A stretch of DNA of 64,000 nt from an uncultured Planctomycetaceae bacterium. Its GTDB lineage: Bacteria > Planctomycetota > Planctomycetia > Isosphaerales > Isosphaeraceae. The notes under the pieces are model-generated. The model did not search any database. It was not told where the DNA came from and worked only from the letters and a program-made list of their open reading frames with translations. The position numbers and the translations under genes are program-made. Below, piece by piece: positions 21,184 to 41,207 of this stretch (within the stretch, counting starts at the first letter, position 1; the number at the start of each line of letters is the position of its first letter). The stretch is taken from contig CAWIAD010000002.1 in the NCBI GenBank assembly GCA_963833985.1, forward strand, positions 5,184,001-5,248,000. The letters are read 5' to 3'.

Positions 21184-22179
21184 ATGATTCCCCCTGACGA
21201 CAAGCCCCTGACTCCCGAGCAGGCCCGAGAGAGACTTCAGCAGGGCCTGATCGATGACCTGGCGGGCAATGATACGGTACCCGTTGTCTTCAGGCTGAAA
21301 CCGACCGGGAAGGCCAGCGAGACCTATCCGCTCAAGCTCACCCGGCTCCAGCGGGAAACACTGCTCGGGTTCACCCGATTGAACCAGGCATTGAGGAACA
21401 AGATCTTGCAGGCCGGAGAAGGCACGCAGATTGTTGGCGTGACCTGGAACGAACTGGACAAGCTGAACGATGAAACGGGAGCAGCCGCAGTATACGCCCC
21501 CAGAGTCCACAAGAATCGCCTGCTGGCGGTCCAGTCAAAGGTGATCAAGTTCTTCGAGGCGGAACACGCAGGAATCTTTGACGGGATCGTCCCGAAGACC
21601 CGCAGAAGGCGCCCCGCGAAGTCCGGGATTCTGTTCCAGTTCAGGATCACCTTGCTCGACATCAAACCGGCGATCTGGCGGCGGATTCAGGTTACCGATT
21701 GCAGGCTGCCCGATTTTCATACGCAGATCCAGGCTGCGTTCGGCTGGTGGGACTATCACTTGCACCAGTTCGAGATCAACGGCGTGCCGTTCAGCCTGCC
21801 AGACCCGGACGGGGACGATTTCGGCCAGGAATTCGAGGACGAGACGCATGTTCTTCTGAGCGACCTGCTGCCGAAGTCGACAAAGAAAACGCGGTGGATC
21901 TACGAGTATGACTTCGGTGACGGCTGGCGGCACGACGTCTTGTTCGAGGGCTTTCCCCCATTCGATCCCAACATGAAGTACCCGCTCTGCCTCGAGGGGG
22001 AGCGGGCCTGCCCACCGGAAGATTGCGGCGGGCCCTCGGGCTATGCGGATTACCTTGCCGCCATCGCTGACCCGGATCATGAGCAGCACGAGGAGATGCT
22101 GAAATGGCGAGGGCCCTTCGATCCCGCAGCGTTCGATGCGGAGCAGGCGACGGCGAAGATGAGAGAGAAGAAACCATGA
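21184..22179 (+). CDS. pRiA4b ORF-3 family protein with N-terminal extension
   Basis: QFRITLLDIKPAIWRRIQV, FGWWDYHLHQF, YEYDFGDGWRH, GERACPPEDCGG, FDPAAFD. Confidence 0.9.
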   Translation: MIPPDDKPLTPEQARERLQQGLIDDLAGNDTVPVVFRLKPTGKASETYPLKLTRLQRETLLGFTRLNQALRNKILQAGEGTQIVGVTWNELDKLNDETGAAAVYAPRVHKNRLLAVQSKVIKFFEAEHAGIFDGIVPKTRRRRPAKSGILFQFRITLLDIKPAIWRRIQVTDCRLPDFHTQIQAAFGWWDYHLHQFEINGVPFSLPDPDGDDFGQEFEDETHVLLSDLLPKSTKKTRWIYEYDFGDGWRHDVLFEGFPPFDPNMKYPLCLEGERACPPEDCGGPSGYADYLAAIADPDHEQHEEMLKWRGPFDPAAFDAEQATAKMREKKP

Positions 22180-22649: not shown

Positions 22650-22938
22650 GCCCCCTAAGTCCTGCATCGTGGTCGCTCCTCTGGGCATTGCCCCATGGAA
22701 CCGGGCGAAACCATCACTCTACCCGATTTTCGCCGCCAGCGTTGGCCTCGGTGCGGAATCCGCATGAGTGCGACCGTCAGCCCGCCGACATCCGGGAGCG
22801 GAGCACGGCTTTCCCGAACCGGATTGCCCGAATAGACGATCGGCGATAGGGTTCGGGGGTTGGTGTCGCGGACGCGGGGACCAGGAAGGTTCCGGGGAGC
22901 TCGGGATGCACGGAGGAACGGTGCGGGTGATCCGCTCG

Positions 22939-24751
22939 ATGAACGGTCGCTGGTGGCCGGAGCTCGTGGCCGCGGTGCTCGCGGTGGGGATCTTCCTGGG
23001 GTTTCTGGGCACACTGGAGTTCTGGGGCAAGCGTGAGCAGCGGGCGGCGGCGGAGACGCTCGATACGCTCGATCAGAAGCACTGGCTGGTGGCCGAGATC
23101 CAGGGGCGGCCCCGACTGGAAAAACCGCCGTTGCCGCGGTGGACGACCGCCGCGCTCATGGCCCTCTCCGGCCGGCGTGACGAGTGGATCGTCCGGCTGC
23201 CGGGCGCCTGCGCGGGGCTGGCCACGGTGGTGCTGCTCTACCTGCTGGGAACGCGCATGGGCGGACGCGGACTGGGGCTGGCCAGCTCCATCATCCTCGG
23301 CAGCATGTGGCTGTTCATCGCCGAGCTGCGGCAGGCCGGCAACGACGGACCGCTGGCACTCTGCACCACGCTCGCACTGCACGCCGCCTGGTGCCAGCTT
23401 CACGGCAAGCCGCGCGGCGGCGCCGGCGTGGCGGAAACGCCCGCAGCCAGTTCGTCGCCATCGCGTCTTGGGGCCCTGGTCTTCTACCTGGCGCTCGGGC
23501 TCGGCTTCCTGTGCAAGGGGCCGATCATCCTGCTCGTCGTCGGGCTGACGCTGGTTCCCTACCGGATCCTCTCCGGGCAGGCGGGCGCGGGCCTGCGCAG
23601 CCTGGCCGACCTGCGAGGGCTGCTCCTCTTCCTCGGCCTGGCGCTTTGCTGGCCGCTGCCGGTGCTGCTTCGCGATCCTCATGCCCTGGGCGTGTGGGCG
23701 TTGGAGATCGGCCAGAAGACTGGCATGCTGCCGATTGTCCACCAGGGCCGTACCGTGCTCGGACTGTCACTGCCGGTTCTTGTGATGCCCTGGCCGGTGC
23801 CGGTCCTGAGCGGAGTGGTGCTTGCCTTGCTGCCACGCCGCGGAGTCTGCCTGCCGTGGCCGCGAGGCGATCTGGTTTCCCTGGTGCTGGGCGGTTGTGA
23901 ACCTGGCGGTATTCAGCACCTGGGCGGTCGCCAAGCCCAACTATTACCTGCCGTGTCTGCCAGGAGCGGCGCTGCTGGCGGGAATGGCCTGGATCCGCCT
24001 GAGCCGTGCGGCGCGCGCCACCGAGCGGCCAGTGATGGCGAAGACCGCTCTGGCGTTGCTGGGTGGCCAGTGGGTCATGATCCTGGCGGCCGGGACCCTG
24101 GCCCCGCTCCTGAGCGGCCATTCCCTGGGCGGGTTGCTGCCGGTCGCCCTCGCGGTGGTGATGGGTTCGGCCGCCTGCGCGGTCGCTGCCAGCGGGGTAC
24201 TCTGGCGGCGGGGCAAGGACGAGTTGGCGCTACTGCCAGTCCTGGCGGCCAGCGCGGTCGGGGTGCTGGTGGGCTACGGGATGCTGGCCCCTGCGGACAA
24301 CCCCGCACGCGGGCATCGCACGCTGGCGCGCGAGCTGGAGCGGCGGGTGCCGGCCAACGTGGGAACCATCCACTTCTTCCATGAGATCGACAAGGGGTTG
24401 TGGTTCTATCTGGACAGGCTCAGGCTTGCGCCCGTGCCGGGGAGCCAGCCCCGCTACAGCGAAAGCTATGACCGCATCGGTGGCCTGCTGAGCGCACCGC
24501 TGGCGTTCGACGCCCCGGCCGACCCGACCCTGCGGCGCGCCGACCGGCAAATGGCGGGGCTGGTGGACTGGCTGAAACTCCACGGTCCGGAACGACCCTA
24601 CCTGGTCCTCCGGAGCGCACTGTATGCCCGCATGGCACCTGATCTGGGCGGCAGAACCACGCTGCTCTACCAGGAGGACGGCATGAAGCGAAACACCTTG
24701 ACCTTGCTCCAGATCCACCCTTTGCAGGAAACCGGCGCACCGACCCGGTGA
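22939..24751 (+). CDS. ArnT/PMT-family (GT39/GT83) glycosyltransferase, frameshift near 23868
   Basis: GKREQR..E, PRLEKPPL, VRLPGA, RQAGNDGPL, GFLCKGP; continues in the second frame with AKPNYYLPCLP; multiple TMs. Confidence 0.85.
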
Positions 24752-25199
24752 ATCTTGCGGCCTGAAGCGGTTCGGCCGTTGGAAAGCAGCATGCCGGTGG
24801 CGTGAAGCCTGGCGGTCAGCGAAAGCACGGCATGCCAGAAATGCGGTTTGCGCCGATTGTGCGGGCCAATCATGTTATGCATTTTCTCTATTTTGCCCGA
24901 CCCTGACGACCGTCAGGATTTCCGACGTAAAGTGTTGGTACAAAACGTGAAACGAATTCAAGAGGCGGCCATTGGGGGACGATACAACGAGTGGCTCGCC
25001 ATGGAACACCACGGCGAGAACTCGGGAGCACCAAGTTGTGTGGTATCGACCGGCGGGGAGACGGCAACGTCTCGGGTCCCGGGAAGACCTGAACCAAAGG
25101 CTTGATGCCATGGACGATCGACAAGAAACAGGGTCGAGCGAAACGGCCGGCCGGAATCGCTACCCTCGATCAAACGTTAGCCAAGGAGAGTATTCTCCC

Positions 25200-25781
25200 A
25201 TGTTGAAGCCCTTGACGTTGAGCCTCAGCCTTGCCGTCGCCCTTGGGTTTTGCAGCGTGAGCATGGCAGGCGGTCATGACGGTTGTACCACCTGTGGTCT
25301 GGCCTCCCCGCAGGGCGGCCCGATGGCCAGTGCTCAGGGTCCGATCGCAACGGGTTGCGAGACCCCCTGCGCGCCCAAGAAGCACCACTTCGCCGATTTC
25401 TGCTGCAAGCTGAAGTCGGCTCTTCATCCCCCGGTCTGCTACGAGTGGGTCCTGAAGAAGAAGAAGATGTGGGGCCACCACAACAACTCCGGCTGTGAGA
25501 CCTGCGGCGCCGCTGGTGCTCCGGTCTATGCGACCGGCCAGGTTGCTCCCTCCGGCCAGGGCGGCTACGCCGCTCCGTCGGGCCAGGGTGGCTATGCCGC
25601 TCCTCAGGCCGCGCCGATCTACGGTGCTGGCCAGCACGCCTACCAGACGATGCGTCCTTCCACGACGATCGCGTCGGTTCCCGCCGAGATGACCCCGGCT
25701 GTCGCTGGCGACGAAGCTCCCCCGGCCCCGGAAGTTCGCGAGACCAGCGGCCTGCTGCTGCCGACCCCCTCGGGCAACTGA
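25200..25781 (+). CDS. Secreted Cys/Gly/Pro-rich planctomycete protein with short repeats
   Basis: AAGGAG RBS; signal peptide; CTTCG, CETPC, CETCG; APSGQGGYA tandem repeat. Confidence 0.75.
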   Translation: MLKPLTLSLSLAVALGFCSVSMAGGHDGCTTCGLASPQGGPMASAQGPIATGCETPCAPKKHHFADFCCKLKSALHPPVCYEWVLKKKKMWGHHNNSGCETCGAAGAPVYATGQVAPSGQGGYAAPSGQGGYAAPQAAPIYGAGQHAYQTMRPSTTIASVPAEMTPAVAGDEAPPAPEVRETSGLLLPTPSGN

Positions 25782-26395: not shown

Positions 26396-28071
26396 ATGGC
26401 GAGATTTGCCTGGTTGACGTCCGGTCCAGGCCTCAACAGTCTTGGCCCGCGCCTGGAGAGCTTGCGCCGGCGGGCGGCAGCGCGCAGTCCGGCTGTCCGC
26501 TGGGCGCGGCCGCCTTGTGTACCGTGGCTCTGGGACTGGCGGTGTACCTGAGCAGCGTGGCTCTTTCCACGGGGTCCAGCGTCTATCTTGGCTCCGGGCG
26601 GCGGTTCAGCCCGGAGGACCTCAGCAAGATCTCGCGCGGACTCGATCACCAGCGCCTGACCTACCGCATCGACGACCAGAGGCGGGTGGCCGTGGCAGCG
26701 GAGCAGCTCGAGCTGGCCGGTACCGCAATCAGCAAGCTCGAGCTCGGACCGAGGCCGCCGGGAGAGATTCGCGACGACCAGTCGGCCGCGTCAAGCGTCT
26801 GGGAATCGATCCACGACAAGGAGCTTCGCGAGTTCCAGGGCCGGGAGAAGATCCTCGAGTCCCTGATTGGCGACCTGCCCGGGATCGTCGGCTCGTTCGT
26901 CTGGATCAACCGGACAAAACCGCGATGGGGCCTTCAGCAGGCCGTCAAGCCGTCGGCGTTTGTCCGGCTGGAGACCGAGGGCGATCGCCAGTTGCCCTTC
27001 CGCACCGTGCAGACGCTGAGCACCATCCTGACCCGCACCGAACCGGGTCTCACCGCTGATGCGGTCACGGTCGTGGATCGCCGGGGACATACGTACCTCG
27101 ATGCTGGCAACCCGGCCCTGAGCGCGCTCTCGCATAACCGGGCGCGTGAGGAAGAGCTGAGCCAGCAGATCCTCGAGCAGCTCGACTGGATTGGCGGCGT
27201 GCGCGTCTCTGTCCAGCTTGCCGAGACGACGCGGCCGGGAACGAGCACGGTGGAGACCAGGCCCGCGGAACGGCGCCCTTCACCCGATGGGAAACCGGTT
27301 CAGAGCGCCCTTGAGCCGCCCCGCGGAGAACCGCCGTCACGGTGGAAGCCGGCCTCGGGAAGCGGACCGGAGACCAGAACTCTGGCCCCCGCCGTGGCGG
27401 TGAACCGGCCGCTGACACTCGACCCGGAGTTTCCGGCACCGGTGCCAGCACCACCGTGTGGGGCCGGCGTCACCTCGGCGACGTCGCAGCCGGCCGCGGT
27501 CCCTGCGGCAGACACTGGCCCGCCGACGATACCTCGACCCGGCGCCCGCGAGCTCACCGGCGACACCGGCGTCGTCTGGGTGCGCGTGCCGCGCAGCTAT
27601 TATTACAAGGCCGGCATCGCACTGAACCGCAGGGAACCTTCTCTGGACGAGTTTCAGAAGCTGGTCGCTCGCACCGAGGAGCAGATCAGGACCGGCATCG
27701 GGCTGGTGGTCAACCTGTCCGGGCCGCTGTCCTGGACCGCCAAGATCGACATGATCTCCGACGACGTCCCGCTGGACGCTCCGGCCGCAGTGGCGTCCCC
27801 CAGGGCAAGCCGGCGCGTCTCGATGGAATGGGCCGTCGCCGGAGCGCTCGGGGCCGTGGCAGTGGTGATGGCGGCCATCGGATCGTGGGTCCTGAGCACC
27901 CGGAGGCCGGCGCTCGCACCGGCAGCGGCCCCGCGCAACCTGCGTTTCCACGACGCATCCGCCTTCTCTCCGGGCCCCTCGGAACGGCTTCGGGAATTCG
28001 TCCGCCGGAACCCCGAGTCGGCCGTCAGCGTGCTCGAGCGCTGGACGAGCCAGGGAGGCACAGCCTCATGA
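26396..28071 (+). CDS. fliF: FliF/YscJ-family MS-ring protein (probable start 26396 with a frameshift near 26503; alternative in-frame ATG at 26389)
   Basis: TM1; RBM-like LESLIGDLPGI..KPSAFVRL..PGLTADAVTVVDRRG; EEELSQQI..VRVSV; TM2; C-terminal ERLREFVRRNPESAVSVLERW (FliG-binding). Confidence 0.8.
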
Positions 28072-28688
28072 TCCGTACAACCTCTTCGGCGGCAGATGCG
28101 AAGCACGACCCGGCTGCCCCGGCGGCACTCCAGACGCCGGGCTCGCCGGTCCCGCCTCCGCATGACGATGGCCCGCCCGGCGCGACCATCGCCCCCTTGC
28201 GCAAGGCGGCGATTGTGCTCGTGAGCCTGGACCAGTCGCTGGCGTCCCAGTTGCTGGCACAGCTCGACCGCTCATCGGTGGAGGCGGTCACCTGGGAGAT
28301 CGCCCGGCTGGAGCGGATTGATCCGCAGGAGCAGTCGGCCGTCCTGGATGAGTTCCTGGGGCTGGGCCTGCGCCGGCTCTGCTTCGTCTTTGACGACCTG
28401 CTCCGCCTGGGCAACCCGGACATTCGCGGGGCCTATCATCAGGAAGACATCACCACCTGGGCGCTGGCTCTTGCCGGCGCGGCCCCGCTGGTGCGGGCCA
28501 AGGTGCTGCGCTCGCTCGACGCCGCCGACTCCGCGGCCCTGGAGCGTTGCCTGGAGGGCCTTGGTCCGTTCCGGCTCTCCGACGCCGAGGCCGCCCAGGC
28601 CGAGATCGCCGAGCGATTTCGCCGCCTTCACGACCGGGGCCTGATCGCCCTGCCCGACCCGAGCGGGCGTGAAGCCGTGCTGGTCTGA
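28068..28688 (+). CDS. fliG: Shortened FliG (N- and C-domains fused, middle domain absent), 206 aa
   Basis: LRKAAIVLVSL..EIARL..VLDEF (FliG-N) is joined directly to FVFDDLLRL..ALALAGA..LGPFRLSDAEAAQAEI (FliG-C); ATGA overlap with fliF. Confidence 0.85.
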   Translation: MIRTTSSAADAKHDPAAPAALQTPGSPVPPPHDDGPPGATIAPLRKAAIVLVSLDQSLASQLLAQLDRSSVEAVTWEIARLERIDPQEQSAVLDEFLGLGLRRLCFVFDDLLRLGNPDIRGAYHQEDITTWALALAGAAPLVRAKVLRSLDAADSAALERCLEGLGPFRLSDAEAAQAEIAERFRRLHDRGLIALPDPSGREAVLV

Positions 28689-28746
28689 TGCGGCGAGCGG
28701 CAAGAACCATCCATCGGCTGCTCGACGCGACGCCGGAGACCCGGAC

Positions 28747-29229
28747 ATGAAGACCACTTGCCGCATGCAAGCTCGAAGCCTGCCGCTGTGCTCCGCTCTG
28801 CTGGCGGCTCTGCTGGCGGGCGTGCCGGCCTCCGCGGAACAGGAGCCTTTGCGCGTACCAGGGCCGTCGAGCCGGCTCGTCGGGCGCGACGGGTCCGCCT
28901 CGTCCCGGGGAACGGCTCCCCCCGCAAGCAGCGCGACGGGATGGTGGCTCGGCTCGGCGGGAATCACCCTCGTTCTGGCGGTCTGCGGGGCCCTCTGCGT
29001 GGCGGCGCGGAGGTACTTGCCACAGGCGCCTTCCGGATCGCTACGGGTCGTCGGCCGCGTCAGCCTGTCGCCCCGGCATTCCATTTACATGGTGCGGGCC
29101 GGTGAGCGGGTCTGGCTCATTGGCACCGGCAGCCAGGGTGCGCCCACCCTGCTGGGCGAGCTGACCGCGGAGGCCGCCACGCCCCGCGCGGCGACCGGGC
29201 TCGACGTCCGTCTGGGAGAGGAAGAATGA
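28747..29229 (+). CDS. fliO: Flagellar export chaperone FliO
   Basis: TM followed by LRVVGRVSLSPRHSIYMVRAGERVWLIG...LLGEL; lies directly upstream of fliP. Confidence 0.85.
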   Translation: MKTTCRMQARSLPLCSALLAALLAGVPASAEQEPLRVPGPSSRLVGRDGSASSRGTAPPASSATGWWLGSAGITLVLAVCGALCVAARRYLPQAPSGSLRVVGRVSLSPRHSIYMVRAGERVWLIGTGSQGAPTLLGELTAEAATPRAATGLDVRLGEEE

Positions 29230-30146
29230 AGCGCTCCCGGCACGACAGACTGCCTCGAATCGCGGCCGCCCTGCTATGGCCACTGCTCTTGCTGGCGCTG
29301 GGAGCAGCGCCCTCCGGCGAGGCCGCGGCCCCGGCGGGCGCCCACCGCGAAGCAGTCGCCCTGCTCCCGGGCGCGGCCTTCGGCTCCGGCGCCGGCTCGG
29401 ATGCAAGCGTCTTCCGCGCGGGGGACGCTCCAGCACGGGACCTCGCGCCTGGCGGCAAGCCGCCCATTCCCGACCCGCGCGACGCCATGCGCGTCATGCC
29501 GACGATGCTCCTCTATGGGCTGATCTGGCTGGCCCCGATGGCGGCGATGATGGTCACCGCGTTCGTGCGGATCAACATCGTTCTGGTGCTCTTGCGGCAG
29601 GCCCTGGGCAGCCCGCAGATCCCGGGGAACCAGGTGCTCATGGTGCTGTCGCTGCTGCTGACCGCCCTGGTAATGCGGCCAGTGGGCGAGCAAGTCTACA
29701 CGCGAGCGATCGTTCCGTACATGGCGGGGCAGGCCACTCCGGCGCAGGCCTGGTCCGCGGGCTCAACTCCGCTCAAGACCTTCATGGTCGACCAGATCAT
29801 CAGGACCAACCACCAGGACCATCTCTGGGCGCTTTACCGTTACGCGGTGCCCTACAGTCCGGGCCAGGTTGATCCTCAGTATGCCGACGAGTTCCCTTTC
29901 CGGGTGGTGGCGCCGGCTTACATGCTCAGCGAGCTCACCACAGCGCTGGTGATCGGCTTTTATATTTACCTGCCGTTTCTGGTGATCGACCTCGTGGTCT
30001 CGGCGGTGCTGGCGGCCATGGGCTTGTACATGCTGCCGCCGTCGCTCGTGGCTATCCCGATCAAGCTGATGGCCTTCGTGCTGGCCGACGGCTGGCTGCT
30101 GGTAGCGTCGAAGCTGCTCTCAACCTTCGCCGTCGGTGGGACCTAG
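29226..30146 (+). CDS. fliP: Type III/flagellar export gate protein FliP
   Basis: TAFVRINIVLVLLRQALGSPQIPGNQVL, PAYMLSELTTA..GFYIYLPFLVIDLVV, PIKLMAFVLADGW. Confidence 0.95.
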   Translation: MKRSRHDRLPRIAAALLWPLLLLALGAAPSGEAAAPAGAHREAVALLPGAAFGSGAGSDASVFRAGDAPARDLAPGGKPPIPDPRDAMRVMPTMLLYGLIWLAPMAAMMVTAFVRINIVLVLLRQALGSPQIPGNQVLMVLSLLLTALVMRPVGEQVYTRAIVPYMAGQATPAQAWSAGSTPLKTFMVDQIIRTNHQDHLWALYRYAVPYSPGQVDPQYADEFPFRVVAPAYMLSELTTALVIGFYIYLPFLVIDLVVSAVLAAMGLYMLPPSLVAIPIKLMAFVLADGWLLVASKLLSTFAVGGT

Positions 30147-30180
30147 GACAGCCAGGAAAGGAAGGAGGGCCGCCCTGGAC

Positions 30181-30441
30181 ATGAATCATGCGATCGACTG
30201 GTCTCGCGAAGCCCTGCGGATGGCGCTGTTTCTTGGCGGTCCGCTGCTGGCTGTCGCCCTGCTTGCGGGGCTGGTGATCAACATCCTGCAAACCGTCACC
30301 CAGTTGCATGAGCCGGTGGTGGGGCTTGTCCCGCGGCTGGTGGCCGTGCTGCTGGTCTTGCTGGCGATCCTTCCCTGGCTGATCGGCCGCTGGGTCAGCT
30401 TCACCGTCGAGATGATCGGCTCGATTCCCGATTTGTTATGA
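30181..30441 (+). CDS. fliQ: Export gate protein FliQ
   Basis: 86 aa; PLLAVALLAGLVINILQTVTQLHEP..VPRLV..PW. Confidence 0.93.
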   Translation: MNHAIDWSREALRMALFLGGPLLAVALLAGLVINILQTVTQLHEPVVGLVPRLVAVLLVLLAILPWLIGRWVSFTVEMIGSIPDLL

Positions 30442-30451
30442 AACACAGGCA

Positions 30452-31222
30452 ATGGCCGTTGACGTGGATTCCATCAACTCCATCTGGATTGAAGCCCATG
30501 CTCCGGTCTGGGCCCTGGTGATCGCGCGTGTGGGCGCGGCCTGCATGACGGCGCCCGTGACCGCGGCTCCGGGGCTCGGCTGGCCCATGCGCCTTGTGCT
30601 TTCCCTCATGCTGGGCGTGGTGGTGATTCCGGTGCTGGAGCCCTCGATCGGGGCGGTTCCGGGCGGACCGATACTGCTCTGGCTGTGCGTGATGGAGCTG
30701 CTCGCGGGGGGGTTGCTGGGATTGACGGCGGGCCTCATCGTGGCGGCCGCGCGGCAGGCCGGCGACCTCGTTGCGGCCCAGGCGGGGCTCTCGGCCTCGA
30801 CGCTGTTCGATCCCGAGACTGGCGAGGAGCTCACGCCCCTGGGCCACCTCTACGGCCTGATCGCGCTGGCCGTGTTCCTGGCCATGGACGGTCCGCTGGT
30901 GCTGGTGGGAACCGTGGTGGAGAGCTACCGCTCCGTTCCTGCGGGCGGCTTTCGGCTTGACGCGAACACGGCGTCGGAGCTCTTCGCCCACCTCGGCGGC
31001 GCGCTGGCCCTTTCGCTCCGCGCCGCCGCGCCCGTCGCCGTCTCGCTGGTCGCGGCCGGAATCGTGCTCGGCTGGATTGGTCGGCTGGCGCCGGCGGTGC
31101 CTCTTCTGGCCCTGTCGCTCCCCGTCCGATCGCTGCTGGGGATCCTCCTTGTCCTTCTGAGCCTGACCACATTGGCCGCGACGTTTGCCCAGGCGTGGTC
31201 CGGCTGGCCCTGGGGACCATGA
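30452..31222 (+). CDS. fliR: Export gate protein FliR
   Basis: ARVGA..APV, ELLAGGLLG, AGDLVAAQAGL..FDP, DGP, LRAAAP, GRLAP..LSLP. Confidence 0.9.
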   Translation: MAVDVDSINSIWIEAHAPVWALVIARVGAACMTAPVTAAPGLGWPMRLVLSLMLGVVVIPVLEPSIGAVPGGPILLWLCVMELLAGGLLGLTAGLIVAAARQAGDLVAAQAGLSASTLFDPETGEELTPLGHLYGLIALAVFLAMDGPLVLVGTVVESYRSVPAGGFRLDANTASELFAHLGGALALSLRAAAPVAVSLVAAGIVLGWIGRLAPAVPLLALSLPVRSLLGILLVLLSLTTLAATFAQAWSGWPWGP

Positions 31223-31254
31223 GAACCGTGGTCGATCACAACTGAGGCCGTCTC

Positions 31255-32292
31255 ATGTCCGAGGATCGAACTCAGCCCGCCTCGAAGCGCCGCTTGCAGA
31301 TGGCACGCGAGCAGGGCCAGGTGCCGCACAGTCCCGAGCTCACGGCCGCCGGCGGCTGGCTGGTTGCGCTGCTGGTGCTGGGTTTCTGGGGCCAGGACCT
31401 GATGGCGGGCCTGGTCGGCCTGGTGCGGCAATCGGCCGGCCCGGAGCGCGCGATCCTGTCCGATGCCGACTCGCTGGTGACGCACGTGCACGCGGCCGCA
31501 CTGGCGGTTGCGGTGCCACTGGGCCTCGTCGGGATAGGATTCGCGGCCGGAGCGCTGGCCACCCACCAGATGCAGGTCCGCGGGCTCTGGGCCGTGGGAC
31601 TGGTCGCTCCCGATTTCAGCCGACTCTGGGCCGTGGGCCGGGGCGCTGGATCGAGCGCAGGAGTCGAGCGATTTGCCTGGGCGGCGGTCAAGGCCGTGGT
31701 GCTCGTGGGTGTTTCCTGCTGGGTAATGAGCGCGGAATGGACCGCGATCCAGCGGCTTGGGTCCTTGAAGTTCCCCGCCCTGGCGATTGCGGCAGGTCGT
31801 CTACTGATCCGGCCGGTTCAGGTGCTCGGGGGAGCGATGCTGGTTCTGGGCCTGTGCGACTTCGGCCTGCGCCACTTCCGTTACGAGGCGATGCTGCGGA
31901 CGACGCCGGAAGAGCAGCGTGAGGACCTGAGGGTGATGGAGGGCGATCCTTCCCTGCGAGCCAGGCGCAGGCGCATGGCCCGGGCCTGGCGGGGCGACGC
32001 GCCGGAATTGCTTGCCGGGGCCAGCCTGGTTCTCATCGGCAAGGACGGTCTGACCGTGGTCCTGGCCGGCGGGCCCCCACCGCGGCGCGTGAGCGTCCGG
32101 CATGTGGCCCAGGGAACGACCGGCCAGGGCCTGCGCCGCTCGGCGATCTCCACCCGGCTACCGCAGGTGGATGCCGCCGAACTGGCGCGGGGCGTGGCAC
32201 GGCACGTCGCGACCCAGGGCGCTCTTGCCTCGAACTTGCCGGCGGAACTTCAAAGCGAGCTGGCCAAGGTCTGGCCGGCCCGGGAATCTTGA
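31255..32292 (+). CDS. flhB: FlhB/EscU-family export switch protein, divergent (no NPTH)
   Basis: MSEDRTQPASKRRLQMAREQGQVPHSPEL N-terminus; 4 TMs; LRTTPEEQREDLRVMEGDP linker; C-domain ELARG..LPAEL. Confidence 0.88.
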   Translation: MSEDRTQPASKRRLQMAREQGQVPHSPELTAAGGWLVALLVLGFWGQDLMAGLVGLVRQSAGPERAILSDADSLVTHVHAAALAVAVPLGLVGIGFAAGALATHQMQVRGLWAVGLVAPDFSRLWAVGRGAGSSAGVERFAWAAVKAVVLVGVSCWVMSAEWTAIQRLGSLKFPALAIAAGRLLIRPVQVLGGAMLVLGLCDFGLRHFRYEAMLRTTPEEQREDLRVMEGDPSLRARRRRMARAWRGDAPELLAGASLVLIGKDGLTVVLAGGPPPRRVSVRHVAQGTTGQGLRRSAISTRLPQVDAAELARGVARHVATQGALASNLPAELQSELAKVWPARES

Positions 32293-32678
32293 CCTCCGCA
32301 GTTAAAGAAAGCATTGAGCGCGAGACGCGAGATCCGCGACCAAAAGACAAATAGAGCGAGTACCGGGGCGATTGCGGGGGCCATATCGGCTCAATTAAAC
32401 TGCCCACGAACGCCGCATTCGCTCTGGACAGTGGCGGACCTCGGCGGTAGATTTCCCGCACACATCAGCCGAGAGCCAGCTCTGGCTTCCCTTGATCAAT
32501 ATTCACCAACCCGGCGCGGGCCGGTGTTTCGCTGGACGGTCTTCGCGAAGAGTCTCGGGAGCGCGGTTCCAGGCGACGGCGAGGTCGCCGGCGGTTCCGG
32601 CCTGTCGACCGGGTGCTACGGCCTTGCGAAACCGACCGGCCGCCGTACGTGGATTTCAAAGGCCTGTGGAGGACGCGG

Positions 32679-34925
32679 ATGCCTGGCACGACGTCGAGTT
32701 CACCGGCCTCGGGATGGAGCCAGGCCCTGGGATTGGCCCTGCCGGTCGTGATCATCGGCGCGATCCTCGTGTTCGTGATTCCCATCCCGCCCGTGCTGCT
32801 CGACGTCCTGCTCTCGGCCAACCTGACGCTGGCGGTGGTGGTGCTGCTCACCACCCTGGCGATCCGCACGCCGCAGGAATTCAGCGCCTTCCCGACGATT
32901 CTCCTGACCACGACCCTGACACGGCTGGTGCTCAACGTGGCGACGACGCGTCTGGTGCTCACTCATGGTGGGGATGACGGGCTAGACGCTGCCGGCGGCG
33001 TGATCCGCTCGTTCGGTGAATTCGTGGCGGGCGACCAGGTGCTCGTGGGCGTGATCCTGTTCTCGATCCTCGTGGTGATCCAGTTCGTGGTGATCACGCG
33101 CGGGGCGACCCGGATCAGCGAGGTGGCGGCGCGGTTCATGCTCGACGGTCTGCCCGGCCGGCAGATGGCCATCGACGCCGACCTGCATGCCGGACTCATC
33201 GACCAGCATGAGGCGCACAAGCGGCGCGACGAGGTTTATCGCCAGGCCGACTTCTTCGGCGCCATGGACGGTGCCGGCAAGTTCGTCCGCGGCGATGCCA
33301 TCGCCGGTGTCGTGATCCTGATGGTGAACATCTCGGGCGGATTGTTCCTGGGGATCGTGAACCACCAGATGAGCCTGGGCGAGGCGGTCAATGTCTTCAC
33401 CAAGCTGACCATTGGGGACGGCCTGGTGAGCCAGGTGCCAGCCTTCCTGATCTCACTGGCGGCGGGCCTGATCGTGACCCGCTCGTCGTCGTCGACCGAC
33501 CTGGGCCATGACGTGGTCAGCCAGCTCTTCAGCAGGCGGGGCGTGATGGGAACGGCCGCGGCCTTCCTCGGTTTGCTCCTGTTCACGCCGCTTCCCAAGC
33601 TGCCGCTCATGGTGCTTGCGGGGGGGCTGGCGACCGCGGCACTCTGGCTGCGGACGAATCCGGACGAGACCGCGACACAGGAACCGCACACACACCCTGC
33701 CCCGGCGCGGCAGCGCGAGCGGCGAACGGGTGACGGAGGCGGAAACGCAGCGCGAAGGGAGAATGCCGGAGCGACGCGGGTGGCTGAGCGTGCCACGTTG
33801 GTCCCCAAGGAAAGCTCCAGCATCGCCGGTCCTAACTCCGAGGGCATGGACGATCTCTTGCACGTCGATCCGCTGGAGCTGGAGATCGGGTTCCGGCTCA
33901 TCGGCCTGGCCGATCCGACGCGTGGAGGAGACCTGCTGGAGCGGCTGCGCACGGTCCGGCAACAGGTGGCTCGCGAGCTCGGTCTGATCGTCCCGCAGGT
34001 GCGGATTCATGATCAGATCAGCCTTGCGCCCAACGATTACCGGGTCAAGATCCGGGGGACGGTCGTCGGTCAGGGAACGGCCTACACCGGCCGGCTACTC
34101 GCGATTCCGCCGGCGGGGATGGTGTCACGGCCCGACGGCCGCGACGGGGTCGACCCGGTCACCGGCCTGCCGGCGGTCTGGATTCACGCGGACGGCCGCG
34201 AAGTCGCCGAGCTGGCGGGCTGCCAGATCCTTGAGGCGTCGGCCGTGGTGGCCGGACATTTCGGTGAGATCGTCCGCAACCACGCCGACGAACTCTTGAC
34301 GCGTGAGCAGATCGAGCGGCTGCTCGACCGCGTGAAAACCTCGGCGCCCACCCTGGCCGCCGAGGTGGTGCCGGCCCTGCTCCGCCCCGGAGAGCTACAG
34401 CGCGTGCTCCAGAACCTGCTCCGCGAGCGCGTGAGCATCCGCGACCTGGAAACCATTCTCGAAGCCCTGGCGGTCCATGCCGGCCGGACCAAGGACATCG
34501 ACGTGCTCACCGAGCACGCGCGTCAGAGCGTGGCCCGGCAGATCACCGAGAGCTACCGTGGCGGTGACGGCCGGCTGCGTGTGGTGACGTTGTCGCGGGC
34601 GCTTGACGCCCGGCTCACGGCAGCGGGCAGCCAGACCGACGTCCGACCGACCGAGGCACTGGGCGATGAGACTGCCCGGAGCATCGTCCGCGCCGTGGCG
34701 TACGCGGTGGGCAACCTGATCGAGGCCGGCCTGGCGCCCTTGATCCTGACATCGACGCCCGCCCGGGCCGTGCTCAAGGACCTGACGCGGGCCGACCTGC
34801 CCCGGCTGGTCGTGCTCAGCCAGCGGGAGATCCCGCGCGACACGCCGGTCGAGGTGCTGGGAACCGTGCTCGAGGAAGAGCCGGAAAGCGTGACCACCTT
34901 CTCCACCACCGAGGCCATGGCCTGA
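32679..34925 (+). CDS. flhA: Export apparatus protein FlhA
   Basis: FSAFPTILL..RLVLNVATTR, RISEVAARFMLDGLPGRQMAIDADL, DFFGAMDGAGKFVRGDA, TIGDGLVSQVP, LLRERVSIRDL. Confidence 0.97.
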   Translation: MPGTTSSSPASGWSQALGLALPVVIIGAILVFVIPIPPVLLDVLLSANLTLAVVVLLTTLAIRTPQEFSAFPTILLTTTLTRLVLNVATTRLVLTHGGDDGLDAAGGVIRSFGEFVAGDQVLVGVILFSILVVIQFVVITRGATRISEVAARFMLDGLPGRQMAIDADLHAGLIDQHEAHKRRDEVYRQADFFGAMDGAGKFVRGDAIAGVVILMVNISGGLFLGIVNHQMSLGEAVNVFTKLTIGDGLVSQVPAFLISLAAGLIVTRSSSSTDLGHDVVSQLFSRRGVMGTAAAFLGLLLFTPLPKLPLMVLAGGLATAALWLRTNPDETATQEPHTHPAPARQRERRTGDGGGNAARRENAGATRVAERATLVPKESSSIAGPNSEGMDDLLHVDPLELEIGFRLIGLADPTRGGDLLERLRTVRQQVARELGLIVPQVRIHDQISLAPNDYRVKIRGTVVGQGTAYTGRLLAIPPAGMVSRPDGRDGVDPVTGLPAVWIHADGREVAELAGCQILEASAVVAGHFGEIVRNHADELLTREQIERLLDRVKTSAPTLAAEVVPALLRPGELQRVLQNLLRERVSIRDLETILEALAVHAGRTKDIDVLTEHARQSVARQITESYRGGDGRLRVVTLSRALDARLTAAGSQTDVRPTEALGDETARSIVRAVAYAVGNLIEAGLAPLILTSTPARAVLKDLTRADLPRLVVLSQREIPRDTPVEVLGTVLEEEPESVTTFSTTEAMA

Positions 34926-34949
34926 GCCATGAAACCAGAGAGTCCGAGC

Positions 34950-36094
34950 ATGGGAGCAAGAACCTACAGGGCCAGAACCATGAAAGAGGCGCTGGCGCGG
35001 GTGCGCCGGGACCTCGGCGGCGACGCCGTCATCCTGGCCTCGCGTGAGGTGCGCAGGCGGAGACTCTTCGGGCTCGGCGCAGGAGCTGATCGAGGTGACT
35101 GCCTCTTCCACCATGCCCGCGGACCTGCCGTCCCTGCTGGGTCCGGAAGTCGCCGGACCGGCGCGACTCGCTCGGTTCCACGCTCTCGGCCGGTGCCCAG
35201 GCGCGGTTTGGAACACAGCTCAGCCAGCTTCATGCCATGGTGGAATCGCTGAGCCGGCAAGGCAGAATTGACCATCTGCTGCCGGACCTTCCCGGCGACC
35301 TGGTTCCGACGTACGCCCGGCTGGTCGAGGCGGATGTCCCGGAAGCGCTGGCCCGCCGGCTGGTCCGGTACGTGGCCGAGGGACTGGAGGATAGCCCGCA
35401 AGGCAACCGGCCGTCCATCGACCGGGCGCTCTGCGAGGCGGTCGAGCAATGCATCGCGATCGCGCCGCCGATCCGCGCGGTCGTGGGAACCCGGCGGATG
35501 GTGGCCCTGGTGGGGCCGACCGGGGTGGGCAAGACGACCACGGTGGCCAAGCTGGCGGCCAACTTCAAGCTCGTCCATGGTTTGCGGGTGGGCCTGGTCA
35601 CCGTGGATACGTACCGGATCGCCGCGGTGGAGCAACTGAAGACCTACGCCGAGATCATCGACCTGCCGCTGGCCGTGGCCAACGATCCAGGCCAGATGCA
35701 GCAGGCGGTGGATGAGCTGGGCGCGGTGGACATGGTCTTCATCGACACCACGGGGAGGAGCCCCCGCGACGAGATCAAGATCCGCGAACTGGCCGACTTC
35801 ATGGCACAGGCGCGGCCGGACGAGGTCCACCTGGTGCTCAGCGCGGGGGCTGCGGAGCGCACGCTCCGCTCGGCCATCGAGCGCTTCGCCGCCGTCAGGG
35901 CCGACCGCCTGATCTTGACCAAGCTTGACGAGGCTGAAGGCCTGGGAGCGATCCTGGGCGTACTGGGCCAGATGGATCGTCCGGTCAGCTACCTGACCAC
36001 GGGCCAGGCCGTGCCGGAAGACATCGAGCCGGCGGACCGCAAGCGGCTGGCTCGACTGATCCTCGGAATGGAGGCGATCGGTTGCGAACCCTGA
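34950..36094 (+). CDS. flhF: SRP-family GTPase FlhF (two apparent frameshifts near 35080 and 35160-35200)
   Basis: MGARTYRARTMKEALARVRRDLGGDAVILASR B-domain; GPTGVGKTTT, DTYRIAA, DTTGRS, TKLDE, TTGQAVPED. Confidence 0.93.
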
Positions 36095-36148
36095 TTTGTA
36101 CGAGGGGCCCGAAGCGCGGCCGGACAGGCCGGGAGGGGAGGTGGCACG

Positions 36149-36388
36149 ATGTCCGACCAGGCGGACAGTCTGCGGCAGCTCGTCCGGGCCCAGCGCCAGT
36201 GGCGTGAGCTCGCCCTGCAAGAGCAGTCCGCGGCACTCGCGTCCGGACCGTTCGCGAAGTCCGCAATGCCGCAACTGCGGACCGCCGGGCATGACCGGCC
36301 GTCCGGTCCCGGCCACGCGGTCGGCCAGTTCGTGGGGCGGGCGGTGCGCTGGGCCGTGGGCCGCCGGGGCGTTCGGAAATGTTCTTGA
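36149..36388 (+). CDS. Mini-FlhG-like peptide (DQAxxLR activator helix plus amphipathic C-terminal helix, no ATPase domain)
   Basis: GGAGG RBS; MSDQADSLRQLV; occupies the canonical flhG position between flhF and fliA; C-terminal VGQFVGRAVRWAVGRR. Confidence 0.7.
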   Translation: MSDQADSLRQLVRAQRQWRELALQEQSAALASGPFAKSAMPQLRTAGHDRPSGPGHAVGQFVGRAVRWAVGRRGVRKCS

Positions 36389-36476
36389 TGGTTCGTGGCG
36401 TGAAACGGACCGTCACACAGGAGAAAGGAGAATCGGCATGGAAGTCTCGATTTTCGGGTTGGCGTGAGAGTGCTGC

Positions 36477-36505
36477 TCAAGCCGGTTGGTCGGGTTGTCC
36501 GATAT
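36477..36505 (+). promoter_or_regulatory. Possible sigma28-type promoter upstream of fliA
   Basis: TCAA-N17-TCCGATAT compared with the TAAA-N15/16-GCCGATAW consensus; spacer slightly long. Confidence 0.3.
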
Positions 36506-36697
36506 TCAATCAGGATCAAGTTCCTTGAACGGCGGGAGGTCAGAGGGCGGGCAAGCCACGGGCCGGGGCACCGGCGTCGCGGCCACCCAGAAATGGCGAC
36601 GCAGCACTGAGTGTTTCGCAACCACGTCGTGATCGTCGCTGGCCTGCCCTTGACACATGGATGTGGGTCCTTCCGCTCAGGCGACACGGAGGTCAGG

Positions 36698-37474
36698 ATG
36701 TCAACCAAGGTGGATGTGGATGTAGCCGAACTCTGGCGTGAGTTCAAGGAACACCCCACCACGGAATTACGGAACCAACTGGTCGAGCGCTACTTGCCTC
36801 TGGTCAAGTACAACGCCGAACGGATCTGGCAGCGGCTGCCCGAGGGGGTCGATCTGGACGATCTGATCTCCGCAGGGGTGTTTGGGTTGATGGACGCCAT
36901 CGATGCGTTCGACCTCGGCCGCGGCGTCAAGTTCGAGACCTATTGTGTTCCGCGGATTCGCGGCGCCATGCTCGATGAGCTGCGCACTATGGACTGGGTT
37001 CCGCGCCTGGTCCGCTCCAAGGCCACCAAGATGGAGGAGGCGCGCAAGGAGCTGGAAGCGCGCCATGGCCGCCCGCCCACCGATGCCGAGCTCGCCGCGC
37101 AGCTCGGTCTGCCCATGGAAGAATATGAGAAGATGGCGCTCGACTCCAACGCGGTCGGGCTGATCAGCCTGAACAAGAAGTGGTACGAGACCGACAGCTA
37201 CAAGGATGTCCGCGAAATCGACATCCTCGAGGATAAGAAAGGGGAAGACCCCACCCGCCGGCTCCAGCGCAAAGACCTGATGCGCATGGTCACCAAGGGG
37301 TTGAACCGCAATGAGCGGCTCATCATTATTCTTTACTATTATGAAGAGTTGACGATGAAGGAGATCGGCGCCACGCTGGACCTCAGCGAGTCGCGGGTTT
37401 CCCAGATGCACTCCTCGATCATTCAGCGGCTGCAATCTCAGCTCTCGACCCGGCGGCCCGAGTTCGGCACCTGA
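36698..37474 (+). CDS. fliA: FliA/WhiG-family RNA polymerase sigma factor
   Basis: RNQLVERYLPLVK, DDLISAGVFGLMDAIDAFD..RGVKFETY..RIRGAMLDELR..DWVPR, LYYYEELTMKEIG..LDLSESRVSQMH. Confidence 0.96.
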   Translation: MSTKVDVDVAELWREFKEHPTTELRNQLVERYLPLVKYNAERIWQRLPEGVDLDDLISAGVFGLMDAIDAFDLGRGVKFETYCVPRIRGAMLDELRTMDWVPRLVRSKATKMEEARKELEARHGRPPTDAELAAQLGLPMEEYEKMALDSNAVGLISLNKKWYETDSYKDVREIDILEDKKGEDPTRRLQRKDLMRMVTKGLNRNERLIIILYYYEELTMKEIGATLDLSESRVSQMHSSIIQRLQSQLSTRRPEFGT

Positions 37475-37761
37475 AACGGGTGGCCTGGCAGCAGATCCGT
37501 CGTGGCCGACCTGGCTGCGGCGGACTTGTGCCGCGGCTTCAAGGGGCGCTGCGAACGCCAGAGCGCGGCGACGAGGATCAGCAAGACGGCGATCCCCACG
37601 ATCCAGAGGACGGCCTTCACGCCTGACGAGAGGGGGACGGCGGGTGTCTCGCGGAGATAGACGGGGAACGGCTTGACGGCCGGACGATCGGCCGCGGCCG
37701 CGTTCGGATCGACGAACAACTCCTGCTCTCGCTTCTTGATCGAGAGCTCCTGCTCGGGCAT
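37438..37761 (-). CDS. Small single-TM hypothetical protein
   Basis: MPEQELSIKKREQELF..KPFPVYLRETPA..LWIVGIAVLLILVAALW; convergent with and overlapping the fliA 3' end. Confidence 0.65.
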   Translation of the reverse strand: MPEQELSIKKREQELFVDPNAAAADRPAVKPFPVYLRETPAVPLSSGVKAVLWIVGIAVLLILVAALWRSQRPLKPRHKSAAARSATTDLLPGHPFQVPNSGRRVES

Positions 37762-37844
37762 GTTCCGCGCTTCCGAACTCATGCGACCGGTCCCGGGTCA
37801 TGACGTCCGCAGCCCCAACGTGAGGCAGTTCCCTCTCTTCAAGA

Positions 37845-38690
37845 CTAGGGCGAACCCGGCCTGCTGGCAATGGCTCCCCTTCTGGGCTGCTGCCGGCCCC
37901 GGCGGGCCATGAAGAACCAGTCCCAGCTGGGGGGAAAGTTGCACAGCTCCACGCTTCCCGGCTGCGTTTCCTCCCAGGGATAGAGAACCTTGCTCAGCCG
38001 GACGTCGCGAAAGCCGGCCCTGCCCAGGCGATGTTCCACCTCGAAGGGAAGCCAGAACTTCTGCCGCAATCCCTCGAACTTGAAGGTTCCGAACGCGAAG
38101 TCGTAATACCGATGCTCGGCGTGGTGCCGCGTGAACCGCATGGCTTCCGGCGGCTCCAGGCCTTGTTCGAGCGTCTGATCCAGCACCAGCATCGTCTGGT
38201 ACTGGATGGCGTCGATGGATGGCACGATCCCGAGCAAGACCCCGCCCGGCCGCAAGCTGGCGTGAATCGATTGCAGCGTCCGCTCGATCAGGCGGACGTC
38301 GGGCATGACGAGTGAATTCACGGTGATGGCCACGTCCACCTGGCCAGCCAGGTCGTCCAGGTCGTGCATGGCGCGGTTCAGAAACTCGACCCGGCCCGCT
38401 TGCTCCGGACCAAGACGCTGTTGCGCGGAGGCCAGCATCGCGGGAGCGAAATCGAGCGCCAGGACGCGCCCGAAGCGCCCCAGCAGGTAGGGCAGTAGCG
38501 GACCCGTTCCGCAACCCAGGTCGGCCACGGTCTTGCGGCCGGGACTGGCGACCGATTCGAGTGCGGCCCAGATCGGGTTCTGCACGCCAGGGGCAAACGG
38601 GTCGACGAACGTCGCGGCATAGCTGGCGGCGTGCCGGCTCCACTGCCGCCCCTGATTCCCGAGTAACTCCATGGGATCATTCACAGTCAT
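37845..38690 (-). CDS. Class I SAM-dependent methyltransferase
   Basis: VADLGCGTG, LDFAPAML, LRPGGVL; exact start uncertain (38672-38696). Confidence 0.85.
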   Translation of the reverse strand: MTVNDPMELLGNQGRQWSRHAASYAATFVDPFAPGVQNPIWAALESVASPGRKTVADLGCGTGPLLPYLLGRFGRVLALDFAPAMLASAQQRLGPEQAGRVEFLNRAMHDLDDLAGQVDVAITVNSLVMPDVRLIERTLQSIHASLRPGGVLLGIVPSIDAIQYQTMLVLDQTLEQGLEPPEAMRFTRHHAEHRYYDFAFGTFKFEGLRQKFWLPFEVEHRLGRAGFRDVRLSKVLYPWEETQPGSVELCNFPPSWDWFFMARRGRQQPRRGAIASRPGSP

Positions 38691-38865
38691 GACCATCTTC
38701 AGCGCCGAGATCGTGGCTCGAGAGTCCCCGCGGGCCGATGTAACGTTCGCCCGAGCCAGAGTATGGGTGCTGCTGTGAATAGCATGGAACACCCTGACGG
38801 GCAGGTCAAACCCGGAGCCCGCCGCAAGACAGACGCGAGAGGATCCAGGGTCGGTCCTGGGCTGG

Positions 38866-40376: not shown

Positions 40377-41207
40377 ATGTGCTCGACTCAGACCGACCGC
40401 GCCATGGACGCGCCGGTGCTATCGCAGGATGACGAGCGTGCCATCGACCGAATCGTCCACTCCATGAGTCGGGCCCGGCGCCTGCTGTTCATCACGGGCG
40501 CGGGAATTTCGGCCGATTCCGGACTTCCCACCTACCGCGGACGGGACGGGCTCTACCGGGTCCAGCAGACCACCCCACACGGACTGTCGATCGAGAAAGC
40601 GCTCTCGGGGTCGATGCTCCGCACGCGTCCCGAGATCACCTGGCATTATCTGCTTGAACTTGAGAAGACGAGTCGTCATGCCACTCCGAACCGCGGTCAC
40701 CAAGTGATCGCCGAAATGGATGACTACTTCGACGCAGTCTGGGTGCTCACTCAGAATGTGGATGGTTTGCACCAGAGCGCAGGGTCCCGCAACGTACTGG
40801 ACCTCCATGGCAGCCTGCATGAGCTGCTCTGCACGCAGTGTGGCCAGCAGTCCACGACGCCCGATTATTCCGGCCTCGCGTTGCCGCCCCGTTGCGCCGA
40901 GTGCCAGGGCCTGATCCGCCCCAAGGTCGTGCTGTTCGAGGAAGAACTCCCCTACGACAAGCTTTCCCGTCTCTGGTTCGAGATGGGCACCGGCTTCGAT
41001 CTCATCTTCAGCGTCGGCACCAGTAGTCTCTTCGAGTACATCGTCGAACCCGTCCGGGTCGGCCGCCGGATGGGCACCACGACAGTCGAGATCAACCCCG
41101 AGGACACGACCATTTCGGGCGAGGTGGATATCAAGATCCGTGCCGGCGCAGCCACCGTGCTGGGAGCTGTCTGGGAACGTTACCTGGCCTGGTGGCCCTG
41201 GTCCTGA
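40377..41207 (+). CDS. cobB: NAD-dependent protein deacylase (sirtuin)
   Basis: TGAGISADSGLPTYRG, TQNVDGLH, LHGS, CTQC..CAEC, RPKVVLFEE, GTS, INP. Confidence 0.9.
   Translation: MCSTQTDRAMDAPVLSQDDERAIDRIVHSMSRARRLLFITGAGISADSGLPTYRGRDGLYRVQQTTPHGLSIEKALSGSMLRTRPEITWHYLLELEKTSRHATPNRGHQVIAEMDDYFDAVWVLTQNVDGLHQSAGSRNVLDLHGSLHELLCTQCGQQSTTPDYSGLALPPRCAECQGLIRPKVVLFEEELPYDKLSRLWFEMGTGFDLIFSVGTSSLFEYIVEPVRVGRRMGTTTVEINPEDTTISGEVDIKIRAGAATVLGAVWERYLAWWPWS

Follow-up and report, generated by a model that had tools for sequence, protein, structure and literature searches.

The closest described counterpart of the system reported here is the FlgM/sigma-28 checkpoint of Salmonella and Pseudomonas. 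In enterobacteria, export of the anti-sigma factor FlgM frees sigma-28, which is also the secretion chaperone of FlgM (PMC3372961). In Salmonella, removal of the FlhB C-domain and Fluke locks the export gate in its late state, and FlgM fusions are then delivered to the periplasm in the absence of rod-hook genes and FliK (PMC13344023). Parts of the same equipment are found in bacteria without flagellar motility. The non-flagellated Legionella oakridgensis has sigma-28 and FlgM, with flgM under sigma-28, but no basal body, and its FlgM is apparently degraded (PMC5655016). Lysobacter enzymogenes OH11 keeps a functional export gate without flagellin, but it uses FliI and the system acts on twitching; FliA and FlgM have 0 occurrences in the main text of that report (PMC7277350). 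The CORE platform of nanotubes consists of FliOPQR-FlhAB (PMC6456723), and export parts without motility are also represented by Buchnera basal bodies, the flagellar-type genes of Chlamydia and the non-flagellar type III secretion systems of Myxococcales (PMC3459982). Here we describe a flagellum-derived operon of a member of the Isosphaeraceae (contig CAWIAD010000002.1, assembly GCA_963833985.1; genome G000, 96% complete), located at positions 26396-37474 of the analysed stretch of 64,000 nt (the window). The operon encodes an export gate, not a motility organelle. From sequence comparisons, we put at roughly 60% the probability that this gate is a regulatory valve that exports FlgM to release sigma-28.

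The operon consists of eleven co-oriented genes on the plus strand, fliF-fliG-fliO-fliP-fliQ-fliR-flhB-flhA-flhF-mini-flhG-fliA, and all eleven were found in the order and orientation given by an earlier sequence-only reading of this DNA. The MS ring gene fliF (26396..28071; PF01514, E 2.5e-12) is followed by a mini-fliG of 205 aa (28071..28688), in which the N-terminal part is fused to the C-terminal domain. The gate itself is encoded by fliO (28669..29229; PF04347, E 1.9e-7; start codon uncertain), the core gene fliP (29226..30146; PF00813, E 1.3e-60), fliQ (30136..30441; PF01313, E 1.3e-20), fliR (30452..31222; PF01311, E 3e-44), a full-length flhB (31255..32292) and flhA (32733..34925, with the longest open reading frame starting at 32613; TIGR01398, 764 bits), so that the genes for FliP, FliQ, FliR, FlhB, FlhA and FliO in a FliF ring are all present. 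Downstream are flhF (34929..36094), encoding an SRP-type GTPase with intact G1, G3 and G4 motifs, a mini-flhG of 79 aa (36149..36388), of which only the FlhF-activating motif DQAxxLR remains, and fliA, encoding a sigma-28 of 258 aa (36698..37474; TIGR02479 over cut-off). The GC content of the operon was like that of the remaining window, and its nearest named relatives were Isosphaeraceae. In flagellated relatives the ancestral order is flgB-flgC-fliE-fliF-fliG-fliH-fliI-fliJ-X-fliK-flgD-flgE-flbD-motA-motB-fliL-fliN-fliO-fliP-fliQ-fliR-flhB ... flhA-flhF-flhG-fliA, and the window operon equals this arrangement minus flgB, flgC and fliE and minus fliH to fliN.

The comparison covered 121 Isosphaeraceae genomes, 47 of which were rated good, and 301 Planctomycetia genomes, 152 of them with flagellin. 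FlhA was found in 112 of the 121 family genomes, and FliP in 60/60 of those at least 90% complete; each was present in 47/47 good genomes. Flagellin scored over the cut-off in one of the 121 genomes, a 61%-complete one, and in 0/47 good ones, with a best E value of 0.056 in G000. Rod/hook proteins (PF06429) were not detected in any of the 36 family genomes searched, nor FliE or a MotB plug over the cut-off in any of five. Profile searches of G000 found no flagellin, rod/hook protein, FliH, FliI, MotB or FliE, and tblastn queries taken from the flagellar gene sets of four flagellated relatives found no FlgA, FlgB, FlgC, FlgD, FlgE, FlgF, FlgG, FlgH, FlgJ, FlgK, FlgL or FlgN, no FliC, FliD, FliS, FliE, FliH, FliJ, FliK or FliL, no MotA or MotB and no FlhG. 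Queries with FliI gave only F1/Rho-like matches. The matches that were obtained were the operon genes, FlgM, FliW, CsrA, a FliN-like domain and a weak FlgI-like match. Thus none of a filament, rod or hook, FliE, MotA/MotB or full FliG was found, nor the FliH/FliI/FliJ ATPase, the NPT[H/E] autocleavage motif of FlhB or the FliK switch. These results bear out the sequence-only reading in denying the operon a motility function, and no set of filament, rod/hook, Mot or FliH/FliI genes was found elsewhere in the genome. It had also set the operon apart from injectisomes, and FlhA is indeed of the flagellar type (764 bits with the flagellar model versus 506 with the SctV model), with neither SctN nor FliI found in G000.

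Four components, FliF, FliG, FlhB and FlhG, are altered in the window, as that reading had noticed. FliF keeps RBM1-2 and the C-terminal FliG-binding helix, and the beta-collar strands, which in a flagellum hold the rod, are replaced by Pro/Ala-rich sequence; the FliF_C profile gave no match in the window FliF. The middle domain of FliG is deleted. A loss of torque residues in FliG was considered and carries no diagnostic weight, since the canonical charges are missing from flagellated relatives as well (compared by eye). In FlhB, the NPT[H/E] motif is absent from every family sequence read (motifs were counted by eye, the automatic NP flag being too loose), and the Isosphaeraceae have a remodelled C-domain with a conserved GGPPPR motif and dN/dS values of 0.08-0.56 (8 pairs, separate domain split). 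This C-domain may act as a new plug, or it may be a stump that does not inhibit. The reduction of FlhG is real in the window and not family-wide: across 45 family loci, FlhG was full in 19, mini (59-98 aa) in 17, frameshifted-looking in 3 and without a match in 6. The DQAxxLR motif, which activates FlhF (10.1101/2022.03.19.484964), was always kept in the mini forms, and the GTPase motifs of FlhF were intact in 41 of the 45 loci.

The export channel has also changed. The Met gasket of FliP, GM(M/L)M, has become GL(Y/F)M. The charged residues R85, R94, K203, D208 and D249 of FlhA serve ion-coupled export, and their equivalents (numbered from the alignment) were kept in 35/35 aligned sequences, with one K to R exchange. 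The equivalent of F459 in the chaperone pocket of FlhA was Thr or Ser in every family sequence, and Thr in the window. Median pairwise dN/dS values over trimmed coding regions (4-7 pairs per gene) were 0.31 for fliF, 0.14 for fliG, 0.11 for fliO, 0.12 for fliP, 0.15 for fliQ, 0.18 for fliR, 0.20 for flhB, 0.18 for flhA, 0.15 for flhF and 0.04 for fliA. These medians agree with the proposal of purifying selection rather than decay, and the gate genes were retained as single copies in 47/47 good genomes and 53/53 genera. The known docking sites are altered, namely the FlhB C-domain for early substrates and the F459 pocket for chaperoned late ones, and the ion-coupling residues are kept. The evidence as a whole favours a regulatory function, with FlgM as the cargo.

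Of the known flagellar gate substrates, tblastn found FlgM alone to be left in G000. It is encoded by an orphan gene outside the window (G000:C2:2555896-2556180; PF04316 over cut-off) and was present in 73 of the 74 family genomes at least 85% complete and in 47/47 good ones. Aligned family sequences were 70-87% identical, and the first 40 residues had dN/dS values of about 0.04-0.15 (6 pairs). The family has both a FliA-family sigma factor and its predicted anti-sigma factor FlgM. The coupling to hook-basal body completion of the classical checkpoint is missing, with no rod, hook or ruler.

A link between FlgM and the gate was seen outside the Isosphaeraceae. There, 80 of the 91 flagellin-less class genomes were searched for FliP, and 75 of these 80 were also typed for FlhA. 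A FlgM-like protein was found in 80/80, and FliA in 78/80 at 72-84% identity. Of the 75 flagellin-less genomes, the 33 with a native gate gave matches over the whole FlgM profile, and in the 42 without one the match began at position 23 or later. Since FliA persists whether or not there is a gate, it is the form of FlgM, not sigma-28, that tracks the gate. The 25 partial FlgMs that were read had varied, remodelled N-termini without the D-x-V-E-I-S segment and had kept the C-terminal helices; one type was closest to Gemmata and Frigoriglobus records. Three genomes of family f4 serve as a within-family control for this covariation. Six flagellated genomes (G141, G198, G258, G300, G320 and G359) had a partial FlgM and an FlhA of a separate foreign clade, which fits a predicted history in which the native gate was lost, FlgM was remodelled and another flagellum was gained.

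The flagellar systems of these six genomes, with the FlhA of the separate clade, are located at loci L211-L213, L388, L389, L392, L404 and L406, which suggests that motility was regained by transfer. In addition to the native sigma-28, G141 encodes another, distant FliA, and G198 encodes a second FlgM.

The motif TCAAG-N15/16-xxCGATA was found upstream of flgM, fliA and up1, a gene just ahead of the operon. Known sigma-28 promoters resemble this motif and have the -10 element GCCGATAA (PMC12784957). The fliA site (36477..36504, plus strand, TCAAG-N16-TCCGATA) lies 221 nt upstream of fliA, and the up1 site (24958..24984, plus strand, TCAAG-N15-GACGATA) precedes a gene of 193 aa (25200..25781, plus strand). 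Up1 is Cys/Pro-rich, with a signal peptide recognized by eye and no Pfam family; it usually adjoins fliF or flhA, had a median dN/dS of 0.21 (4 pairs) and is a predicted sigma-28 target. The motif occurred at 51/76 fliA loci and 19/23 up1 loci, some of which are duplicates, and at 0/34 fliF and 0/104 flhA loci. At the best spacing, G000 had 24 intergenic and 4 coding matches, and in four other genera the motif outnumbered its reversed control by 49 to 16, 19 to 4, 17 to 2 and 12 to 5. Shared targets were drawn from 79 sites of relatives; of the 49 matches in G098, 19 had no locus and were mostly left out. The targets common to several genera were up1, fliA, flgM, a second sigma-70 factor and two TolC-like proteins, one of them an outer-membrane efflux protein and the other recognized by eye. 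A thioredoxin/trypsin-like protein, a secreted protein of no family and the stretch ahead of enolase complete the set.

By motif conservation, these genes are predicted to form the sigma-28 regulon, and the sigma-28-type promoters at flgM and the late genes are predicted from consensus match and conservation only. The regulon link proposed from the sequence alone is thereby upheld, given the conserved motifs before fliA, flgM, up1 and envelope genes. The accompanying suggestion, that the gate exports budding, holdfast or envelope material, was not supported in that form: the sigma-28 targets that were found carry ordinary Sec- or lipoprotein-type signals (signal types of up1 and the regulon proteins were called by eye).

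Two sigma-28-type sites precede stretches of several hundred bases in which no open reading frame is clear. One, L362 (G000:C2:5292332), lies upstream of enolase and is conserved in four genera; the other, L379 (G000:C2:1345862), is followed by a hairpin and a T run. Both may mark small RNAs.

Taken together, the observations can be arranged in the following model. The gate genes, which have no sigma-28 promoter, would be made first; FliF and mini-FliG would form the housing ring, and FlhF, switched by the DQAxxLR stub, would place or time the gate, at the pole or the bud. FlgM would bind the FliA encoded by the operon. Once assembled, the gate would export FlgM by the ion motive force, and gate assembly itself is the simplest candidate for the trigger. 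The freed sigma-28 would amplify itself through the fliA promoter in a positive loop and fire the envelope genes and the downstream sigma factor. Finally, the flgM promoter would remake FlgM and damp the loop, so that the envelope genes would be expressed in a pulse, perhaps in the new bud. Export is possible without FliHIJ (PMC4230889). The complexes of FlgN, FliT and FliS dock at F459, and the list of substrates reduced by the F459A exchange does not include FlgM (PMC5916509).

We infer that the system works like the flagellar FlgM checkpoint, with which it shares gate proteins, anti-sigma factor, sigma factor and promoter type. It is not a flagellum, and it lacks the switch and the ATPase of a standard export apparatus. 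Unlike the Salmonella checkpoint, it has no flagellum to report on and no ruler, its predicted targets are envelope and regulatory genes, and the Isosphaeraceae lack the ATPase and have a remodelled, uncleavable FlhB C-domain. The Legionella type, with FliA and FlgM and no gate, is not what the Isosphaeraceae have; its lack of a gate is shared by 41 relatives, and it resembles the gate-less planctomycetes of families f5 and f14. In contrast to the other remnants, of which Buchnera keeps a basal body and the Myxococcales systems belong to the injectisome line (PMC3459982), the Isosphaeraceae have a flagellar-type FlhA and are free-living. The CORE gene set is matched by genes alone; the section of the CORE paper on CORE-only bacteria names Myxococci, Chloracidobacterium and Succinatimonas and no planctomycetes, and for Isosphaera pallida its table has entries for FliP and FlhA alone, with no FlgM link (PMC6456723). 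Our literature search found no description of such a gate system in planctomycetes among the papers within its reach, which left out most subscription papers.

Gate reduction is not peculiar to the Isosphaeraceae and recurs across the class. FliP was kept in 34 of the 80 flagellin-less genomes searched outside the family; the same 34 keep FlhA, and 41 of the 75 typed have neither. Of the 34, G224 combines a lone fliP with an FlhA on a very long branch, and three others have rod/hook matches, so that a native gate without axial genes was found in 30 genomes of 10 families. The arrangements form a reduction series, from fliF-G-H-I-J-N-O-P-Q-R-flhB through fliF-G-O... and fliF-O... to (fliN-)fliO-P-Q-R-flhB alone, the smallest forms being exactly fliO-P-Q-R-flhB plus flhA. 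In the FlhBs of 27 rod-less gates outside the family, NPT was absent from 27/27, and 22/27 stop before the C-domain; a separate C-domain gene elsewhere was not sought. The anatomy of these 22 natural genomes is that of the laboratory Salmonella strain without rod-hook genes, Fluke and FlhB C-domain (PMC13344023). The F459 equivalent of FlhA was lost in 18 of 21 other reduced gates and kept in 7/7 flagellated or rod-bearing ones. In a tree of FliP, FliQ and FliR (32 rows), flagellated genomes stood among the reduced ones, and a single origin of the reduced gates was rejected with a p-AU of 0.004, which is approximate (fast topologies, 5000 replicates). The FlhA of the system described here grouped with native planctomycete flagellar FlhA. 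Several origins are favoured because families f3 and f4, in which reduced gates are placed, are mostly flagellated (26/33 and 65/79, respectively). The planctomycetes of family f5 (Gemmata-like) are budding bacteria, and FliP was not found in any of the 40 flagellin-less f5 genomes searched; the gate is therefore not generally needed for budding, which tells against the budding role that had been suggested for it. A cultured candidate for a reduced gate is Stieleria marina K23_9, whose FlhA lacks the P-A-F-G pocket and in which no flhG was called between flhF and fliA (L148:9968-14564).

A broader reading, which we consider less likely than not, is that a type III machine has repeatedly been pared to an ion-driven valve with one substrate, an anti-sigma factor whose ejection fires a class-wide developmental sigma-28, with a bud or daughter-cell envelope programme, in budding bacteria without FtsZ; the Isosphaeraceae FlhB C-domain would be a new timing plug. 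If this is true, the planctomycetes would hold a natural minimal type III gate used for gene control, not for building or injecting. Their series of independent reductions is a ready-made experiment on what such a gate requires, and the repeated loss of the FlhB C-domain parallels a genetic model of the substrate switch from 2026. The sigma factor, shared across Planctomycetia at 72-84% identity in flagellated and non-flagellated lineages alike, is a candidate life-cycle regulator. The control of division and budding in planctomycetes is poorly understood, and a promoter motif and a set of targets are now to hand.

Several points weigh against FlgM export as the function of the gate. Salmonella with the uncleavable FlhB N269A cannot switch to FlgM export, and truncated Salmonella FlhB needs the loss of Fluke and over-expression (PMC13344023); in the Isosphaeraceae, the C-domain of FlhB stays tethered and uncleavable and is under selection. 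Degradation can control FlgM where there is no gate, as in L. oakridgensis (PMC5655016). The 33/42 split in FlgM form reflects few independent gate losses, in about four lineages (f5, f14 and two f4 genera), and the FlgM profile was built mostly from gate-bearing genomes (14 of 17 rows). Some other reduced lineages keep FliH, FliI and FliJ, more than one small substrate may need. The FlhA tree, in which native flagellated or rod-bearing genomes made up only three rows, did not reject a common origin for the reduced gates (p-AU 0.454). In the closed genome G059, no flhB lies beside fliR (it was not sought genome-wide), and FlhF is degenerate.

G059 is the most reduced family member seen: its FlhF lacks the G3 and G4 motifs, and it has neither an FlhG stub nor a FliM/FliN fusion (L199, L040).

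The alternative that survives best, although we consider it unlikely, is that proteins still to be recognised, of periplasmic, polar, holdfast or bud type, leave through the gate at a site chosen by FlhF, with FlgM export secondary or absent; the idea goes back to the sequence-only reading. The intact FlhF GTPase and the FliH/FliI/FliJ ATPase of several reduced lineages fit such a role, and the non-flagellated Lysobacter uses genes of this kind for export and twitching (PMC7277350). A sorting-platform-like gene pair in G000, described below, would fit as well. No candidate substrate is tied to the operon, however: up1 and the regulon genes appear, by eye, to be of the Sec or lipoprotein type, both known docking sites are altered, and 41 of 75 flagellin-less relatives do without the gate altogether. 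Export of other cargo would also leave unexplained why the N-terminal half of FlgM tracks the gate.

Less probable again is a scaffold or sensor that does not secrete, such as a polar landmark, a CORE-like platform for a mother-bud tube, or a membrane site at which FlgM is held or destroyed. The smallest natural forms, fliO-P-Q-R-flhB plus flhA, are the set reported for nanotubes (PMC6456723), and in the Isosphaeraceae the altered FliP gasket and the uncleavable FlhB C-domain could be read in the same way. The conservation of the five charged FlhA residues and the selection on an N-terminal FlgM region that tracks the gate speak for an exporting valve instead.

We consider a decaying leftover of a lost flagellum to be very improbable and this reading to be largely refuted. 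It could draw on the frame breaks in fliF and flhF described below, on the stepwise loss of flhG, fliG, fliF and fliH-J across lineages and on FliF dN/dS values of up to 0.52 in some pairs; set against it are single-copy retention throughout the family, median dN/dS values of 0.04-0.31 and intact genes in relatives. The idea of a working flagellum or other appendage with axial genes too diverged to detect, for which one could cite the 96% completeness of G000, its FlgI-domain protein and FliW-CsrA pair and the flagellin of the single 61%-complete genome, is hardly credible, as axial genes were not found in dozens of genomes, some of them closed, in searches whose controls worked, and as a comparative paper notes only a "poor representation" of flagellar genes and describes no swarmer cells in the family (PMC5352709).

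The fliF gene of G000 has one frame break at about 26507, and flhF has two frame changes, at about 35078 and 35125-35170, which spread it over three frames. These breaks are most likely assembly errors, because relatives encode intact FlhF (380-384 aa) and FliF (556-585 aa) and because G000 has other split genes, including both ATP synthase alpha-like matches and at least two more. In the closed genome G108, fliP lies in two frames (L037:7219-7850), as an error or a real break. In several genera, mini-fliG is followed by a second small open reading frame of about 100 aa with only the FliG C-terminal domain (L036:6365-6673; L039, L049, L201, L202, L204 and L205), which is absent in the window.

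Outside the operon, the flagellum-related genes of G000 are flgM, fliW-csrA, a FliM-like/FliN fusion and a gene for a FlgI-domain protein. The fliW-csrA pair (G000:C1:2269102-2270015; L368:1103-2016) is kept although flagellin, the usual partner of FliW, is gone. The FlgI-domain protein, of 699 aa, combines a FlgI (P-ring) domain with HEAT repeats and lies away from flagellar genes (G000:C2:342081-344180; L374:582-2681). The FliM-like/FliN fusion follows a FliG-like gene (G000:C2, about 3115530-3117950, minus strand; L034:10531-12949), and the pair resembles the SctK-SctQ sorting platform. The FliG-like protein had no significant profile match to FliG (probability 0.8%), and its nearest Atlas clusters were from Planctomycetota, Myxococcota and Chlamydiota. 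The fusion is kept in 49/60 family genomes; two closed genomes, G014 and G059, gave no match for it. It was considered as an ordinary planctomycete FliM and rejected, since only its C-terminal domain matches flagellated relatives.

A scan for sigma-70 promoters and terminators gave no signal above chance. Upstream of up1, in the window and in several family genomes, lies a gene for a PMT-family glycosyltransferase, which is frame-broken here (22768-24751). Proteins named by eye only as vWA-like, plasmid-ORF-like and sirtuin-like are encoded at 19848-22179 and 40377-41207. Genes for a small membrane protein and a SAM methyltransferase (37438-38792, minus strand) are convergent with fliA in several family genomes.

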